DNA of 35,177 nt, taken from a virus (lineage: Duplodnaviria; Heunggongvirae; Uroviricota; Caudoviricetes). Location of the stretch: IMG/VR virus record IMGVR_UViG_2576861193_000006; one strand, 5' to 3'. The notes under the pieces are model-generated. The model ran no database searches, had not been told where the DNA came from, and saw only the letters and a list, made by a program, of their open reading frames with translations. This document shows positions 1 to 7,977 of the stretch, piece after piece (position 1 is the first letter of the stretch; the number at the start of each line of letters is the position of its first letter). Made by a program: the position numbers and the translations under genes.

Positions 1-462
1 ATGCTGGGTGATTGTTTCCCTCCTGATTTTAAGGCTAATTTTAGTCGTGAAAGAGGTATATCACCCGGTGATGTATTGTATCTTCATTGTGATTTTACGA
101 CCCCACCTAAAGTAAAATATATGGTGGTTGTTTGCTGTGAACCTCTTTTAGTTCTTCTAATAAATTCAGATATAAATGAATTTATTAAGAGAAACAATGA
201 TCTTATGGCTTGTCAGGTCGAAATTAATAGAGAGGACCATGATTTTCTTAAATGGGACTCATTTGTTAATTGCATTGAGGCTCATGCTGCTTTCGATCTT
301 GAAATTATTAAAGAGAAAATAGCCATCCAATATGGCGACGTGCTAAAAGGTCGCATTACAGATCATTGTATGAGACAAGTTCGATGTGCAGTTGAGATAT
401 CTAAAATCATGGTTAAACGGCATAAAAAACTGATACTCGCTGCTCTTCAACATTATGAATAA
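1..462 (+). CDS. hypothetical protein, 153 aa, AT-rich cargo gene; no recognisable domain
   Basis: ORF with ATG at 1 and TAA at 460-462, followed by a hairpin terminator; base composition visibly more AT-rich than the phage core; convergent with xis. May be 5'-truncated by the window edge. Confidence 0.4.
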   Translation: MLGDCFPPDFKANFSRERGISPGDVLYLHCDFTTPPKVKYMVVVCCEPLLVLLINSDINEFIKRNNDLMACQVEINREDHDFLKWDSFVNCIEAHAAFDLEIIKEKIAIQYGDVLKGRITDHCMRQVRCAVEISKIMVKRHKKLILAALQHYE

Positions 463-483
463 ACCCACCTTTGGATGGGTTTA
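461..483. terminator. hairpin between convergent genes (AAACCCA-loop-TGGGTTT)
   Basis: 7-bp inverted repeat at 461-467/476-482 directly after the stop of ORF 1..462 and 13 nt before the stop of the minus-strand xis-like gene. Confidence 0.5.
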
Positions 484-495
484 TTCATATTCTAT

Positions 496-2624: not shown

Positions 2625-3151
2625 TTGCGTAACTCCGATAAATCGTTAAAACGTTCCATAAACATCCCGTAGGCATGACCCGGTGCCAGTGGAATCACGT
2701 TGAACATCTCTGTTGCCGGGATGCCTTCCAGTACAGGCCAGAAAGAGCCATCATCAAGCCCGAGATCGCGGCGTTCGGTTGCCAGCATGATGAGATCGGC
2801 ATATTTCACGGGTGTACTCATAACTGGGGGTAACCCGTATTTCTCACGGATTACGGCGTCTATTTTTTCTTCCATCCGTTTATAGTCAGGAAGAAGGCGT
2901 TTCAGTGGTGCGGGAATGTCCTGGCAATACGCTTCTGTTGCATCATGCATTAACGCTTCAAAAGCAAATTCCTGCGGCACCAGCTGGCTGCAAAGAACCG
3001 CATGTTGGGCGACGCTGTAGAAGTGCGAAAGATGACCGGCAAAGCGACAGATATTTGAAAGGGAAACCGCGATATCGTTAATATCGATGTCGTCTTTATT
3101 TATCTTGTCATAATAAAAATGCTTCCCGGAAAAAGTTTTAATAAATGACAT
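2615..3151 (-). CDS. HD-domain phosphohydrolase (YfdR/YfbR-like 5'-deoxynucleotidase)
   Basis: H...HD metal-binding motifs (HFYSVAQHAV, LMHDATEA); start taken at MSFIKTF. Confidence 0.75.
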   Translation of the reverse strand: MSFIKTFSGKHFYYDKINKDDIDINDIAVSLSNICRFAGHLSHFYSVAQHAVLCSQLVPQEFAFEALMHDATEAYCQDIPAPLKRLLPDYKRMEEKIDAVIREKYGLPPVMSTPVKYADLIMLATERRDLGLDDGSFWPVLEGIPATEMFNVIPLAPGHAYGMFMERFNDLSELRKCA

Positions 3152-3278: not shown

Positions 3279-4103
3279 TCAGGCGGTGAAAGTACCAATA
3301 AAGGTTTCTACTTTGCTGTCTTTGAATTTCTCAACAAGCAGATCACGAAATTCGTTAGCCATTTCTTCCTGCACCGCTTCCAGCTGAATAATGCGCAGAA
3401 CCAGTACAGGACGATCGCCAGTGATAATGCTGAGGCGTAATTTAAACGGACGTTCTTTCAGACCTTCAAACGGAACGCATTTAAATTCAAATGCCACTGG
3501 CATAATGTCTTTGGTCTTCGCTTCGACAGACTCCATCAGGGAGCGTTTGCCGCTGAAGTCATTATCTTCAAAATCAGCGGTCTGGTTTGCTTCAATCGTG
3601 ATTTTACGGACTGCCGCAGCCGCTTTTGTTGCTTGAATGGCGTCACCATTAGCATCAAAGCCCACAAGGTAGTCGGCCCAGTCTTCGATCCATTCTGCCA
3701 GTGACTTCTGGGAGTTACGCTCGCCGTTAACAGACAACAGAGCAGAGAACGGTGCTGTCTTTTTCAGTTTGAGAGTGGCAGTGTTATCTGCGTGACCTGG
3801 CTCATCAATAGTACCCAGGTTAAGCACACTGACGGCACGCATATTATCGGCATCGATAAAGCAGCGGGTGCCTTCATCTGCAAGATCTTTAGAATAACGG
3901 GTAAAATCATCGATGCTGGCAGTGGAAAGTGCACCACGGAAACGGAAGCGATTTAAATTAAATTTTTCCAGATCATGAATGCGGAAATTCTCAGGCAATG
4001 CCACAGCATCGGCACCAATCTTACTGATAATTTCATTAACACCCTGAGCAGAAATAAGGGCATGGATTTGATTAATTGCGGTTGCGTCTAAGTTCTGAGA
4101 CAT
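3279..4103 (-). CDS. DUF2303 / YfdQ-like protein
   Basis: 274-aa ORF starting [12 protein letters not shown], resembling YfdQ of E. coli CPS-53-type prophages. Confidence 0.7.
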
Positions 4104-4168
4104 AATAAGTCCTCACTATATAAAGATATTCAGTGATGAGATAAATAATCAGTTTATTACGAACGATA

Positions 4169-4531
4169 TTAACGACCTGCTGCGCGGAGTTTTCCGTCAG
4201 GTTCACCGGCAAGAGTCAGTAATTGTCCCTGGTCTTCCTGCAGAATAGTCAGGCGGCCACCGCGATTGACATACATCGGCGTTTCGGTGGTGTCTTCTTC
4301 GGAAATTTTCCCGCGGTTAGTCGGGCGAACATATGAGAGTTTGTGTTTGATTTTCACACGGTTCTCATCAAATGGTTCGATTTCCAGGTTGAGCGAGACC
4401 TTACCTTTGGTTTTCGTGTTCATCACACCGGAAGCGACTTCACTGAGAACTGCGCCGATTTTGGTTTCAAATACGCCGCCGTCCAGCTCCCCGATAAATG
4501 CCTGCACATCAGTACTGCGTTCGCTAGCCAT
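4169..4531 (-). CDS. YfdP-like hypothetical protein (120 aa)
   Basis: ATG at 4531 with GAGGAG 7 nt upstream; the longer ORF to 4762 has no RBS and an implausible N-terminus. Confidence 0.65.
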   Translation of the reverse strand: MASERSTDVQAFIGELDGGVFETKIGAVLSEVASGVMNTKTKGKVSLNLEIEPFDENRVKIKHKLSYVRPTNRGKISEEDTTETPMYVNRGGRLTILQEDQGQLLTLAGEPDGKLRAAGR

Positions 4532-4578
4532 TTTGCTGCTCCTCATCATATCGACCCTGCAAGGTCGGTTAGTTTCTC

Positions 4579-4680
4579 CACAAAACAGAGAAGAACACCT
4601 GCGGTGGCAGCCGCCCGGATGGATTGGGTTATGAGCCCGTCGTCCGGTGATGCTCTTCTCTGTTTTGTAAAAAGAGCGGT
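4579..4680 (-). promoter_or_regulatory. boxA-like motif (CGCUCUUUUUA on the leftward transcript) followed by a compound hairpin; candidate nutL/put-like antitermination element
   Basis: Reverse complement of 4668-4678 reads CGCTCTTTTTA; 14-bp perfect inverted repeat 4581-4594/4654-4667 encloses a nested CCGGA/TCCGG hairpin; located about 50 nt upstream of the first early-left gene. Confidence 0.3.
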
Positions 4681-5139
4681 ACCAGCCGGAAGCAAGTGTA
4701 CAAACTGGTACCGCCAAAGCAGTGGCTGTTGTGGTGGGGTTGTCACTCAGGTGTATGGTCAACCTGACAATCCGGTGTCCTCAACGGGGAAAGAGTAACC
4801 CCGCCATACTTACCGCCGCGCCATTTCGCGGATTACCACAACGCTGAGAGCACTTAGCCAGTTACGGCACCACACTTTGTCGCGGTTCCATAAATGCCCT
4901 CATCGTTGCACCCTGGTCTCTTCCCAGGCGTCAAACCGAATCGCCACGCTGGTTAGGCGTCTTATCAGCATCCTCATTGACTTGCACATTCCGGCTACCT
5001 GGTTTGTTTGCCCGAGCAAGGAGTGGATTGTCCCCTTTAACGTCCCCAGACCGCTAACGACGCATGTGCCATACGCCGTGTTACAACCAAATTTTGTTAG
5101 TACCTTGTTTGTAGGTCTGGAAAGAAAGATAAAATGAAG

Positions 5140-5178
5140 TTGCGCATTATGCAAGTGTTTTTATTGCGAGATATGCAA
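5140..5178 (-). promoter_or_regulatory. candidate OL operators and pL promoter
   Basis: Two TTGC-N7-GCAA 15-mers (5140-5154, 5164-5178); on the minus strand TTGCAT (-35), 17-nt spacer, CATAAT (-10). Confidence 0.4.
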
Positions 5179-5188
5179 TTTAGTGGGT

Positions 5189-5213
5189 AATGAAAAGCCA
5201 CCTTCTGGTGGCT
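5189..5213 (-). terminator. rho-independent terminator downstream of cI
   Basis: AGCCACC/GGTGGCT stem followed on the minus strand by TTTTCATT, 20 nt past the cI stop. Confidence 0.55.
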
Positions 5214-5234
5214 AATTGATGTTGAGGTAGGGGG

Positions 5235-5927
5235 TTAATTGTGTCGCTTAAGGGTTTGTGACTGACTGATTAAGACCTTTCCAAAGACCATAAACCGGTG
5301 TTCGTTTTCGCTGGTAATTCCCCATTCGCGGTAAATCTGATTATCAGAAATTACCAGCAGTTTATCAGGTATCATTTGCAGTCGTTTGACGTAAATTTTA
5401 TCATCAAAACCAAATACATATATACCATCCCCATCAAACTGATTGATACTGATATCAACGAAGATGAGATCTCCTGGCTCAATGGTTGGACACATACTGT
5501 CCCCACGAACGTTGATAACTTTAATGTGATTTGCTGGTCGTCCACCAAACATCGATACAGCATTATCAGTTCTGTATTCAATGGCATGAATCACATCAAT
5601 GACATCACCGCCCTGGATAAGGCCATTTCCCGCACTGGCACTGACATCCAGCATTTCAATACGGAATACATCCTTCACCTGCGCAACATCCTCACTAATA
5701 CTGTTTTTACATACAGTATTACTTTTGAGGTCTGAGGTAAAGAGATCAGCAATATCAACACCTAAGCTCCTGGCAATATTACTCAGGGCTTGTTCAGTGA
5801 ATTGTTTCTGCTTACCTGTTTCGAGGCGCGAGATATTCGCCGCATCCACTCCTATTGCTTCAGCGAGATCGGCGATTTTCATGTTCTTCGCCTGGCGAAG
5901 TTGTCTGACTCGATTTCCTATGTTCAT
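5235..5927 (-). CDS. cI: CI-type prophage repressor (HTH_XRE N-terminal domain + S24 LexA-like peptidase domain)
   Basis: N-terminal HTH (QLRQAKNMKIADLAEAIGV), C-terminal S24 features (GDSM ... K); divergent from cro-like gene across an operator region. Confidence 0.9.
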   Translation of the reverse strand: MNIGNRVRQLRQAKNMKIADLAEAIGVDAANISRLETGKQKQFTEQALSNIARSLGVDIADLFTSDLKSNTVCKNSISEDVAQVKDVFRIEMLDVSASAGNGLIQGGDVIDVIHAIEYRTDNAVSMFGGRPANHIKVINVRGDSMCPTIEPGDLIFVDISINQFDGDGIYVFGFDDKIYVKRLQMIPDKLLVISDNQIYREWGITSENEHRFMVFGKVLISQSQTLKRHN

Positions 5928-5939
5928 GCGTTTATTACA

Positions 5940-6015
5940 TTTCTTTATTGCGCGTTAAGCAAATCAACTTGCGCAAAATATTTGCGTGAAATAATATGCT
6001 CATCACGCAATATGT
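5940..6015. promoter_or_regulatory. OR operator region with candidate PR and PRM
   Basis: TTGC-N7-GCAA 15-mer (5948-5962) and related TTGCGC half-sites; PR candidate TTGCGC (-35, 5969-5974) / TAATAT (-10, 5992-5997); inverted repeat TTGCGTGA (5981-5988) / TCACGCAA (6004-6011). Confidence 0.45.
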
Positions 6016-6024
6016 GGAGGTTAT

Positions 6025-6285
6025 ATGCAATCACCATTACGGAATGTGCGTAAGGCGCACGGATTTACTTTGCAGCATGTTGCTGCGGGCGTTCAGGTCA
6101 ATCCAGCGACGCTGAGTCGTATTGAAAGACTGGAACAAATTCCATCTATCGATCTTGCAGAACGTCTGGCCAATTTTTTTAAGGGTGAAATCAGCGAAAT
6201 GCAGATTCTTTATCCGGCACGTTTTCAATCTAGCCAAAACCAGAATGGGTTTAAACCACAGGAACAGGAGGTAAGCCGTGGGTAA
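6025..6285 (+). CDS. cro: Cro-like HTH regulator
   Basis: HTH_XRE motif (FTLQHVAAGVQVNPATLSRIE); GGAGG 4 nt upstream of ATG; divergent from cI. Confidence 0.8.
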   Translation: MQSPLRNVRKAHGFTLQHVAAGVQVNPATLSRIERLEQIPSIDLAERLANFFKGEISEMQILYPARFQSSQNQNGFKPQEQEVSRG

Positions 6286-6829
6286 GCATCATTGGAAAGT
6301 GGAAAAACAACCTGAGTGGTACGTGAAAGCTGTCAGAAAAACTATCGCGGCATTGCCTGGGGGTTACGCTGAAGCTGCTGACTGGCTGGATGTAACAGAG
6401 AACGCTTTATTCAACCGCCTTCGTGCAGATGGCGATCAGATTTTCCCGCTGGGATGGGCAATGGTTTTACAGCGCGCGGCTGGCACTCACTACATTGCGG
6501 ATGCTGTCGCACAGTCTGCTGGTGGGGTGTTCGTATCGCTTCCTGAAATTGAGGAAGTAGAGAACGCCGATATAAACCAGCGCCTGCTGGAAGTCATCGA
6601 ACAGATCGGGAATTACTCAAAGCAGATTCGTTCGGCAATCGAAGATGGGGTCGTGGAGCCACACGAGCAGACAGCAATTAATGATGAGTTGTATCTGTCA
6701 ATTTCGAAGCTCCAGGAGCATGCAGCACTGGTCTACAAAATCTTCTGCGCTCCAGAAAAGAGTGACGCCCGCGAGTGTGCAGCTCCGGGCGTCGTGGCGT
6801 TTTGTGTCTGTGGAGAAACTAACGCATGA
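6278..6829 (+). CDS. CII-like / YdaT-like regulatory protein (putative)
   Basis: GTG start with AGGAGGT 5 nt upstream; position immediately after cro; weak remembered similarity to phage CII (CP76)-family proteins. Confidence 0.55.
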   Translation: MGKHHWKVEKQPEWYVKAVRKTIAALPGGYAEAADWLDVTENALFNRLRADGDQIFPLGWAMVLQRAAGTHYIADAVAQSAGGVFVSLPEIEEVENADINQRLLEVIEQIGNYSKQIRSAIEDGVVEPHEQTAINDELYLSISKLQEHAALVYKIFCAPEKSDARECAAPGVVAFCVCGETNA

Positions 6830-7236
6830 ACAGTTTAACGGCAAATAACCGTTTGTCGCAACAGCTGGTGGTCAGTGTCGCTGAACACCTGTTGTTACGG
6901 TATGAATGCAGATTACCAAATCACCTGGCTGTAAGTAACCACAGAGAACTTTACCTGACTGTGGGGGGCGAGTTGTGCAGGAACTTAACCGCTGGTTTCG
7001 TGACGGAAGAGGGCTTTATGTCCATGTTATTCGTTGGGAGCCAGAAACACAGCGCGTTATCTATCTTCGCAAAGACTACCCGCATGAGTGCTTTAGTCCT
7101 TTGTGGAAATTCAGGCATGATTTTGTTGAGTGTGAAGGACCACCAGCACATTGATTCTGCCATTCCGGGACGTTACACTGTTCAGGCACCTTATAAAGCG
7201 GGTGCCGGGCGTGGAAACCCGGAATTCACCAAAGCG

Positions 7237-7281
7237 CACAACCGCGCTCTTGCGGTTTTTTTGTGTAATGAGCAGCATTAC
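7237..7281 (+). promoter_or_regulatory. boxA-like CGCTCTT plus hairpins (terminator-like stem with T7 run; GTAATG/CATTAC hairpin)
   Basis: ACCGC/GCGGT stem (7241-7256) followed by TTTTTTT (7256-7262); CGCTCTT at 7245-7251; hairpin 7265-7281; lies inside the long ORF 6826..7977, arguing against that ORF's N-terminal part. Confidence 0.3.
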
Positions 7282-7431
7282 GCCCAAATTATGGTGGGGC
7301 GTGCAGGGCCAACTTCGGTTGGGCCGGGTTCTTTGGTGACCGGTATTTCCACCCCTGTACGTCTCACCACCAATAAGGTCGTGGAAAGCCTTGGTGGTGA
7401 GTTATTAAAAATCACCAAAGAGGCTGCCATC

Positions 7432-7977
7432 ATGGCTACGATCCCAACCCTCACTCAACCTGAAATTGCCATCGTTGATGGTCAGGCTGTTACTTCATCC
7501 CTGGCTGTTGCCAACTTCTTCTCCAAACGTCATGACGATGTACTGAAAAAGATCCGCACGCTTGAATGCTCTGCATCATTCACTGCCCGCAATTTTTCGG
7601 TGAGTGATTACACCGATTGCACAGGCCGCAAACTACCTTGCTATCAAATAACCCGCGACGGCTTTGCGTTTCTTGCTATGGGGTTCACGGGTAAACGTGC
7701 TGCCCAGTTCAAAGAGGCATACATCAATGCCTTTAACCAGATGGAGAAACAGCTTTCAAATCCCTCTGTACTGAGCGACGTTGCACATAACGCCAGCGTT
7801 CTCTATTCCTACATTTCATCAATTCATCAGGTCTGGCTGCAGCAGCTTTATCCTATGTTGGCAAAAGCCGAATCTCCGCTGGCTGTTAGCTTGTATGACT
7901 ATATTAATGATGCTTCGGCACTGGCCTGCCTCATAAATTTGTCGCTGAACCCTTCAGAGGTAAGGGGGCGCAAATGA
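7432..7977 (+). CDS. rha: Rha-family phage regulatory protein
   Basis: Rha domain begins at MATIPTLTQPEIAIVDGQAV...; GAGG upstream of ATG at 7432; the upstream in-frame extension to 6826 is judged not part of the protein. Confidence 0.7.
   Translation: MATIPTLTQPEIAIVDGQAVTSSLAVANFFSKRHDDVLKKIRTLECSASFTARNFSVSDYTDCTGRKLPCYQITRDGFAFLAMGFTGKRAAQFKEAYINAFNQMEKQLSNPSVLSDVAHNASVLYSYISSIHQVWLQQLYPMLAKAESPLAVSLYDYINDASALACLINLSLNPSEVRGRK

Follow-up and report, generated by a model that had tools for sequence, protein, structure and literature searches.

What occupies the interval between the early leftward promoter (pL) and the first early-left gene of a lambdoid phage when no N-like gene is found there? 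We addressed this question in the IMG/VR virus record IMGVR_UViG_2576861193_000006, of which the whole stretch of 35,177 nucleotides was analyzed (hereafter the window). The window represents an Escherichia coli lambdoid prophage of the mEp460/cdtI/SfV/ST64B type, and its positions 4400-5300 are 99% identical to phage PhiR47_1. The minus strand of 4532-5140 is the untranslated leader of a pL operon controlled by the repressor cI; it is non-coding and carries no N-like gene. An earlier reading of the nucleotide sequence alone (the sequence-only reading) had likewise seen no credible open reading frame (ORF) or N-like gene in this gap, and had offered three options for it: an antitermination RNA similar to put of phage HK022, antitermination through boxA and host Nus factors, or another regulatory RNA. 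The last option was supported, and 4581-4799 corresponds to a homologue of the dicF region of Qin, a cryptic prophage of E. coli K-12, joined to a conserved downstream hairpin. DicF is a small RNA known to block cell division. We consider it likely that the entire leader serves as a polycistronic, non-coding precursor from which phage small RNAs (sRNAs) derive, in an organization resembling the dicF portion of dicBF in Qin.

A mosaic of structured RNA modules

The leader is assembled as a mosaic from RNA modules, which many phages carry in differing combinations. In the direction of transcription, we refer to its parts as module C, stem D, module B, the DicF-like sRNA, and the long hairpin (Table 1). 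In a sensitive blastn search, pieces of the gap matched different groups of phages, always on the transcribed strand: 4532-4716 matched SfV, SfII, and ST64B; 4720-4842 matched PPompW-type phages; 4836-5079 matched phiV10/TL-2011b-type phages, in which the matching sequence adjoins tRNA-Arg; and 4915-5092 matched P1, P7, and SJ46 between trnI and ban. The homology with phages of other immunity types ends at around 5098, implying that the modules belong to the operon rather than to the immunity region. The minimum free energy of the leader is -238.9 kcal/mol (z = -6.5 relative to shuffled sequences), in line with the structured, untranslated, and pL-driven leader that the sequence-only reading had described.

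No tRNA or transfer-messenger RNA gene was detected in the window by ARAGORN. The Rfam search, at gathering as well as permissive thresholds, assigned no family to the leader interval, and the sole matches in the window were isrK and C4 (see below). A literature search for the conserved sequences of the leader recovered none of them in any paper, albeit their absence from the literature is not thereby proven. The Pas sRNAs (bioRxiv 2026.05.13.724894) are located in the late region and represent a different element. In the deposited records, hypothetical proteins are annotated across the RNA modules, namely mEp460_036/037, cdtI orf40, SfII_35/36, and three small coding sequences of Flotzy; the window spans behind such annotations are 4343-4798 (+) and 4877-5137 (+). 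These are probably mis-annotations.

Counterparts of the dicF region of Qin and P1

Module B shows approximately 88% identity to Qin in the interval separating ydfC from dicF (L014, 2501-2623), just upstream of dicF, and 73% to a P1 sequence (L005, 5363-5461) downstream of Pban. It was present in 4752 of the 5426 complete E. coli genomes. In 20 diverse sequences, the closing stem and the hairpins hp1 and hp3 were 95% paired, as against 32-58% when the strands were slid relative to each other. The third hairpin, hp2, is kept as a local hairpin (CGGGG/CCCCG) with at least eight different stem sequences among the homologues, which also keep the GGAUUGUCA/UGACAACCC helix. The element closed by GGGGTT/AACCCC, which the sequence-only reading had drawn over 4727-4799, can indeed pair as a GGGGUU/AACCCC helix, but it is not the conserved fold, since the homologues keep hp2 and hp3 instead.

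Module B is preceded by stem D, which has a fold of -34.9 kcal/mol (z = -3.0) and is represented in other phages by dozens of strand pairs that differ from one another yet remain complementary. Ragunathan et al. (2023; PMC10448788) showed for Qin that RNase III cleavage of the transcript made from the PL-like promoter dicBp yields a 190-nt species, that the 53-nt DicF arises through cleavage by RNase E, and that some transcripts terminate while others read through. If 190 nt are counted from the 3' end of Qin DicF toward the 5' side, the endpoint falls within the 3' strand of the stem-D-type duplex located ahead of module B. Thus, the 190-nt RNA of Qin corresponds to module B plus DicF. By homology with Qin, stem D of the window is likely a site for RNase III, which would cut near 4844/4843.

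The element directly after module B, the slot taken by dicF in Qin, appears to be a diverged relative of DicF, judging from sequence comparison. Its local alignment to K-12 DicF scored 43 against 17.7 ± 3.8 for shuffled sequences, none of the 1000 shuffles reached that score, and the motif UUUGGCGGUAnCAGUUU is common to the two RNAs. Perfect arms of 10 bp (12 pairs in the predicted fold) enclose a loop of approximately 15-19 nt and are followed by UCUUUUU, and this hairpin with its U-tail is a predicted Rho-independent terminator. Across phages, the RNA placed after module B varies, being the canonical DicF, the type found in the window, or one of other terminator-type RNAs with different 5' single-stranded parts. 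Base-pairing sRNAs whose seed regions can be exchanged would be expected to vary in this way.

As in the window, Qin dicBF is a leftward operon located 3' of a repressor gene and a PL-like promoter, in which a stem-D-type duplex, module B, and an sRNA with a terminator hairpin as its 3' half follow one another. On the other hand, the 5' single-stranded part, the loop, and the 3' arm all differ between DicF and its relative in the window. Qin has ydfABC upstream and an STnc100-like element and dicB downstream, none of which is present in the window, while the window has module C upstream and the 20-bp hairpin downstream. Qin DicF is known as stable RNAs of 190 and 53 nt with known targets in trans. 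Complementarity to ftsZ is not evident in the window. P1 resembles the window in that a module B homologue is followed by a terminator-type RNA (annotated as "dicF-like region") directly after the C1-controlled promoter Pban, and in that trnI and ban flank a module C homologue (78% identity), all on the transcribed strand. Unlike in the window, modules B and C of P1 occur in the opposite order, 2.3 kb apart, with tRNA genes, tciABC, and two reverse-oriented genes between them.

Two observations connect this part of the leader to tRNA sequences. Pieces similar to the T-arm of tRNA (CUGGUUCAAUUCCAG and GGUUCGAUUCC) are found inside the variable apical inserts of stem-D hairpins in SPN1S (L007), phiNP (L270), and L211. 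In phiV10-like and Klebsiella phages, a full tRNA-Arg follows the junction CAGCGUU/GUGG, which precedes module B in the window; in the phiV10-like phages, the tRNA-Arg stands in the slot of module B.

The long hairpin and the leaders of related phages

The long hairpin begins in the U-tract of the terminator and folds with -58.2 kcal/mol (z = -5.2). The perfect inverted repeat at 4581-4594/4654-4667 with nested hairpins, pointed out in the sequence-only reading, is real and larger than described there, with arms of 25 nt and a stem of more than 20 bp. Its apex, which is three-way or multi-branched, carries a conserved CGACGGGCUCAUAACCCAAUCCAUCCGG and a second small hairpin. The covariation analysis that the same reading had called for supported the conservation of the repeat: 15 distinct homologous strand pairs were 95% paired as against 35-64% when slid, with compensatory changes at five or more positions. 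The long hairpin is kept in ST64B, phiNP, Flotzy, SfII, and many contigs. We regard it as a likely substrate of RNase III and leader element, which, with its conserved apex, appears to be undescribed.

ST64B, phiNP, Flotzy, and SfII share a layout in which cI is followed by a non-coding array of 700-1000 nt, a terminator-type sRNA, the long hairpin, and a yfdP-like gene. Their arrays begin, directly after pL, with a conserved element of approximately 65 nt (GCGAACAGGCAGGACGCCCACGAAGUAGCCGCCGGUGGCAUACGAAUGACCGGAUGAUUCGC) termed here module F, which lies at around 1500-1570 in ST64B (L269) and 3400-3470 in SfII (L003), and is also present in phiNP (L270) and Flotzy (L271). Altogether, module F was found in 51 phage records of Enterobacterales and Aeromonas, including Yersinia and Pectobacterium phages. 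It has no match in Rfam, and compensatory changes can be recognized by eye in its closing stem and inner hairpin. Module F fills the slot of module C in the window, and SfII keeps a stump of the first hairpin of module C in front of module F. Both modules appear to be undescribed, with no Rfam family and no paper found to contain their sequences.

Two further elements recur in these arrays. One is a non-coding element located after module C (module E; ..GCUUAGCGGGACUGGAAGAGUUACCACUUGGAGACGGUCC..AAAUGUCCUGGACAGUGGCG), found at around 1840-1990 in mEp390 (L009), where it is annotated as a hypothetical protein, as well as in PAT1 (L012) and several IMG/VR contigs. The other is an STnc100-like module (GUGGUGAAUGCGG..), found at around 2900-3000 in mEp460 (L001), 2696-2836 in Qin (L014), and 1092-1210 in ST64B (L269). 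The latter replaces module B in mEp460 and sits between dicF and dicB in Qin.

Module C, a covarying RNA that travels with RNA genes

The covariance model built for module C (R1) found a single match in the window. In 30 diverse sequences, the helices P1, P2, P4, and P5 were 97.3% paired, as against 27-46% when slid, and 11 pairs showed compensatory changes. The 19-mer of module C was exact in 92 of the 110 sequences collected with an independent anchor. A pseudoknot suggested by RNAalifold, in which GCACAU pairs with AUGUGC and the 19-mer is involved (PK1), was rejected. Its 3' strand had been part of the search pattern, and with the independent anchor three single variants turned out to be uncompensated.

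No Rfam match to module C was found. The module is present in 1831 (34%) of the 5426 complete E. coli genomes, in which it is never annotated, and in 29 species-representative genomes, essentially all of Enterobacterales. It was also matched in IMG/VR contigs, in epsilon15-like phages (adjoining tRNA-Arg), and in P1/P7, where trnI and ban are its neighbors. The search with R1 gave no match in HK022 (L238, with the pL and pR leaders), in SfII, or in Qin. In 154 distinct contexts, module C lies on the same strand as the neighboring RNA genes. According to counts made by eye from the table of these contexts, tRNA-Arg is directly 3' of module C in approximately 35, module B is 3' in approximately 27, and tRNA-Ile/Met(CAT) is directly 5', in P1-like elements, in approximately 25. 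A tRNA gene is the direct neighbor in approximately 40% of the contexts. No protein gene travels with module C, and in some contigs it looks like a stand-alone unit of promoter, RNA, and terminator.

We consider it highly probable that module C represents an undescribed family of functional structured RNA, the role of which may, for example, be to bind or decoy a host factor. Since it travels with tRNA and sRNA genes and not with a protein gene, the most likely reading is a stable RNA that is released from the precursor and acts on a host factor. ROOL and GOLLD, which adjoin tRNA genes, are comparable as large phage-carried structured non-coding RNAs, but the comparison is one of analogy only: module C is much smaller, was confined to Enterobacterales phages in the scans made, and lies in an interval without any Rfam match.

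The leader as a probable precursor of small RNAs

The leader combines homology to a known sRNA region, covarying structure, and absence of coding with a position after a repressor-controlled promoter. Several considerations lead us from there to a precursor of sRNAs. Module B is shared with Qin, and the element that follows it aligns to DicF and ends in a hairpin and a U-tract. P1 keeps the order of module B and the dicF-like region after Pban. The Qin homologue is processed by RNase III as well as RNase E, and the count of 190 nt falls in a stem-D-type duplex. Modules C and B, stem D, and the long hairpin covary, while there is no conserved ORF, tRNA, or Rfam family. Finally, ST64B, phiNP, Flotzy, and SfII share the layout, and module C is always on the same strand as the RNA genes around it.

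The processing, partial termination, and action in trans that we propose for this phage are drawn by analogy from Qin. Once cI is inactivated, pL would fire and the first 590 nt or so would fold co-transcriptionally into separate modules, in the order of module C, stem D, module B, the DicF-like hairpin, and the long hairpin. A part of the transcription would stop at the DicF-like hairpin and its U-tract, which would set the 3' end of the sRNA, and the remainder would read through to the early-left genes similar to yfdP, yfdQ, and yfdR; the terminator would thus work as a leaky attenuator. Cuts by RNase III in the long duplexes, namely stem D and the 20-bp hairpin starting within the U-tract, would set free module C, the downstream mRNA, and a species of approximately 175 nt that unites module B with the DicF-like RNA and corresponds to the 190-nt DicF. 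Further trimming by RNase E may follow. The DicF-like RNA would then act in trans by base pairing with host mRNAs.

Several points weigh against this reading. The Rfam model of DicF (RF00039; gathering score of 48 bits) gave no match at E <= 10 in 4100-6100 or 4640-4780, whereas it scored 76.7 bits in Qin, directly after module B. In a crude duplex calculation, the DicF-like RNA paired with the translation start of ftsZ at -32.0 kcal/mol, as against a mean of -33.3 for shuffles; by eye, only AGUUU and CUUCCG partly match. Sequence comparison further indicated that the AU-rich RNase E site before Qin DicF is not conserved in the window. A terminator of great strength would demand an active mechanism of read-through, and the conserved apex of the long hairpin, together with the complexity of module C, exceeds what simple processing sites need.

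Antitermination, cis-regulation, and coding as alternatives

Among the alternatives, the one that survives best is that module C, perhaps with other modules, is a cis-acting and protein-independent processive antiterminator, namely a functional analogue of put that replaces N. Module C would bind the transcribing RNA polymerase, which would then pass the DicF-like terminator and later signals. HK022 put and the RNA studied here are both non-coding and structured, and both are located just 3' of pL and upstream of terminators in a lambdoid phage that lacks N. Of the structured elements that follow pL, module C comes first both in the window and in other lambdoid leaders, and in some contigs only a few nt separate its beginning from the inferred transcription start. 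A terminator-type hairpin stands between module C and the first gene in the window, and the gap has no N-like ORF. In L165 (1950-3300), a cI-like gene, a terminator, pL, and module C are followed by a bidirectional terminator, a reverse-oriented gene for a 268-aa membrane protein, and then the early genes, so that transcription from pL would have to cross the terminator to reach the latter. In addition, the occurrence of module F in the slot of module C in SfII, ST64B, and phiNP suggests interchangeable cassettes with one role.

Nevertheless, put, which binds to the beta' zinc-binding domain, has two stems in approximately 70 nt (PMC9378689), whereas module C comprises approximately 170 nt and four helices. 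The position of module C, approximately 35 nt after the inferred start, fits put, but its size and four-helix form do not. No similarity of module C to putL or putR was found in sequence or by covariance model. In local alignment, putL and putR matched the leader no better than shuffles did (0.35-0.39 of the shuffles scored at least as high), while putL and putR aligned with each other at 52 against 18.5 ± 4. Together with the lack of R1 matches in the HK022 leaders, these comparisons speak against the put-like RNA of the sequence-only reading. In contrast to put, module C is also found in contexts other than leaders: in P1, ban follows closely on module C, which is 2.3 kb downstream of Pban and past the dicF-like terminator, and in epsilon15-like phages, a tRNA and a small gene come after it. 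No terminator was noticed after module C in the stretches of P1 and epsilon15-like phages that were read, this being a result of reading and not of a scan with a terminator tool. The frequent tRNA neighbors and the stand-alone units weigh against an antiterminator as well, only weak terminator-like sites follow module C in the early-left operon of the window, and the homologous DicF terminator of Qin is naturally leaky and Qin has no module C.

Weighing both sides, we find an analogue of put unlikely. A put-like function is conceivable, at the same low probability, for module C (4908-5082) alone, which the sequence-only reading had not singled out. If this minor possibility held, module C would be a new class of self-sufficient RNA acting on the transcribing RNA polymerase, larger than put and sharing no sequence relationship with it. 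N would then be replaced, in the pL leaders of the SfV/ST64B/mEp460 phage group, by antiterminator cassettes that can stand in for one another (module C or module F of approximately 65 nt), and these would govern read-through of the DicF-type terminator.

RNase III processes the leader of lambda N, and the leader studied here may similarly be conceived as a purely cis-regulatory 5' untranslated region, the duplexes of which would be RNase III sites setting the stability and translation of the yfdP-like mRNA. The location of the 20-bp hairpin and the small hairpin just upstream of the Shine-Dalgarno sequence agrees with this, as does the long hairpin that related phages always have directly before the first early-left gene. 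However, modules B and C also occur in quite different settings from which a yfdP-like gene is absent (Qin, P1, and epsilon15-like phages, in the last case by tRNAs), and the Qin homologue gives rise to the stable RNAs with trans targets mentioned above. We judge a purely cis-regulatory role to be improbable, somewhat more so than the antiterminator.

Antitermination by Nus factors at a boxA, in the manner of rrn or lambda nut, is very improbable. The string CGCUCUUUUUA, on which the sequence-only reading had based it, is present on the minus strand at 4678-4668 and matches the boxA core, CGCUCUU(U)A, but only at chance frequency: two copies of CGCTCTTT are present in the window where 1.1 are expected, and 33% of shuffled sequences contain at least as many. 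It consists of the 3' arm (CTGGTACCGC, 4685-4676) and the U-tail of the 10-12-bp terminator hairpin, with its CGC base-paired, and the position varies in homologues (CGCCCUUUUU, CGACCUUUUU, and GCACCUUUUUU). The string behaves as a terminator tail and not as a conserved boxA. Lambda nutL occupies the same position as the leader, between pL and the first early-left gene, but is accompanied by N, boxB, and boxA, of which the leader has none except for the boxA-like tail. A nut site of the lambda type was rejected on all three of its features (boxA, boxB, and an adjacent N-like gene); instead of a boxB with a GNRA-like pentaloop, the string is followed by a helix of at least 20 bp, the apex of which is multi-branched. 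Least probable of all is a small protein, N-like or other, encoded in the gap: the transcribed strand does contain mechanical ORFs of 66 and 84 aa, but they have no arginine-rich N-terminus, the ORFs of the gap gave zero Pfam matches on either strand, most homologues of the 84-aa region are interrupted by stops in each of the three sense frames and differ in length by numbers not divisible by 3, and the substitutions in the leader follow the pattern of paired RNA helices.

Implications for DicF and for phage leaders

A study in 2016 found no relatives of DicF or DicB in phage genome databases (PMC5069750), and work on DicF has treated it as a curiosity belonging to a defective prophage. DicF-type cassettes, together with the conserved scaffold upstream of them, are now found in the pL leaders of viable phages, namely those of mEp460, cdtI, Stx2c phages, ST64B, and SfII, and in P1. 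The original setting of DicF would accordingly be a repressor-controlled early transcript that delivers sRNAs at induction. More generally, structured RNA units are shuffled among lambdoid, P1-like, and epsilon15-like phages, often trading places with tRNA genes. Module C, with its clear covariation and common occurrence and its absence from Rfam and the searchable literature, is a concrete target for experiments, and the leader offers a testable case of how an early terminator is read through in phages without N.

Promoter, operators, and neighboring genes

The sequence-only reading had placed pL at about 5140-5178. The operator-like 15-mers (TTGCG..GCAA) lie there, but the -10 element and the transcription start are more likely downstream of that interval (Table 1). 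The 15-mer motif is also present at OR (5948-5962) on the other side of cI. An arrangement of TTGCNN-17-TATCTT is common to the window, phiNP, Flotzy, SfII, and L165, from which we infer pL, its start, and a leader of approximately 590 nt; the consensus promoter scan of the window did not call pL. The genes cro and a cII-like gene are directed rightward.

Table 1. Features of the pL leader and adjoining genes in the window.
Feature	Position	Strand	Basis or detail
cI	5235-5927	minus	Pfam (Peptidase_S24 and HTH)
cI terminator	5196-5213		terminator scan
OL operator, TTGCG..GCAA 15-mer	5164-5178	minus	TTGCGAGATATGCAA
OL operator, TTGCG..GCAA 15-mer (first)	5140-5154	minus	TTGCGCATTATGCAA
pL -35, TTGCAT	5149-5154	minus	inside the first OL operator; placed by comparison with related phages
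pL -10, TATCTT	5126-5131	minus	inferred; transcription start at ~5119
Module C, structured RNA of ~170 nt	4908-5082	minus	covariance model R1, 147 bits, E = 3e-46
Module C helix P1	5078-5074/5062-5058	minus	
Module C helix P2	5049-5046/5002-4999	minus	
Module C near-invariant 19-mer	4999-4981	minus	GGUAGCCGGAAUGUGCAAG
Module C helix P4	4960-4957/4949-4946	minus	
Module C possible pseudoknot PK2, AACC/GGUU	4954-4951/4937-4934	minus	one covarying pair only
Module C helix P5	4928-4924/4916-4912	minus	
Stem D, long imperfect duplex	4839-4908	minus	variable apical hairpin
Stem D 5' strand	4908-4893	minus	CAACGAUGAGGGCAUU
Stem D 3' strand	4855-4839	minus	AAGUGCUCUCAGCGUUG
Module B, closed multi-helix RNA	4728-4842	minus	closing stem 4842-4835/4735-4728
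Module B hp1	4831-4827/4820-4816	minus	
Module B hp2	4803-4799/4789-4785	minus	CU-rich loop
Module B hp3	4773-4765/4745-4737	minus	
DicF-like sRNA (putative)	~4668-4727	minus	alignment to DicF; slot after module B
DicF-like sRNA, short 5' single-stranded part			AGCCACUGCUUU
DicF-like sRNA, terminator-type hairpin	4715-4705/4685-4676	minus	GGCGGUACCAG(loop)CUGGUACCGC
DicF-like sRNA, tail	4675-4668	minus	UCUUUUUA; the string called boxA
Long hairpin, stem of at least 20 bp	4576-4672	minus	inverted repeat and fold; 5' strand ACAAAACAGAGAAGAGCAUC
Small hairpin	4569-4550	minus	predicted fold
Shine-Dalgarno sequence, GAGGAG	4544-4539	minus	7 nt before the ATG of the yfdP-like gene
yfdP-like gene, first early-left ORF	4169-4531	minus	ATG at 4531
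DUF2303/yfdQ-like gene, second early-left gene	3279-4103	leftward	Pfam; followed by an HD-domain yfdR-like gene

Two regions outside the leader were noted in passing. At the left end of the window (454-489), a perfect hairpin of 14 bp (TATGAATAAACCCACC..GGTGGGTTTATTCATA) lies between converging ORFs and is probably a bidirectional terminator. In the pR operon, 3' of the cII-like gene, isrK (7186-7262, +; 67 bits) and the C4 antisense RNA (7287-7374, +; 83.6 bits), both above the Rfam gathering score, are arranged in tandem inside a mechanical ORF (6826-7977). This tandem looks like an antirepressor module under antisense-RNA control, similar to immI of P1.

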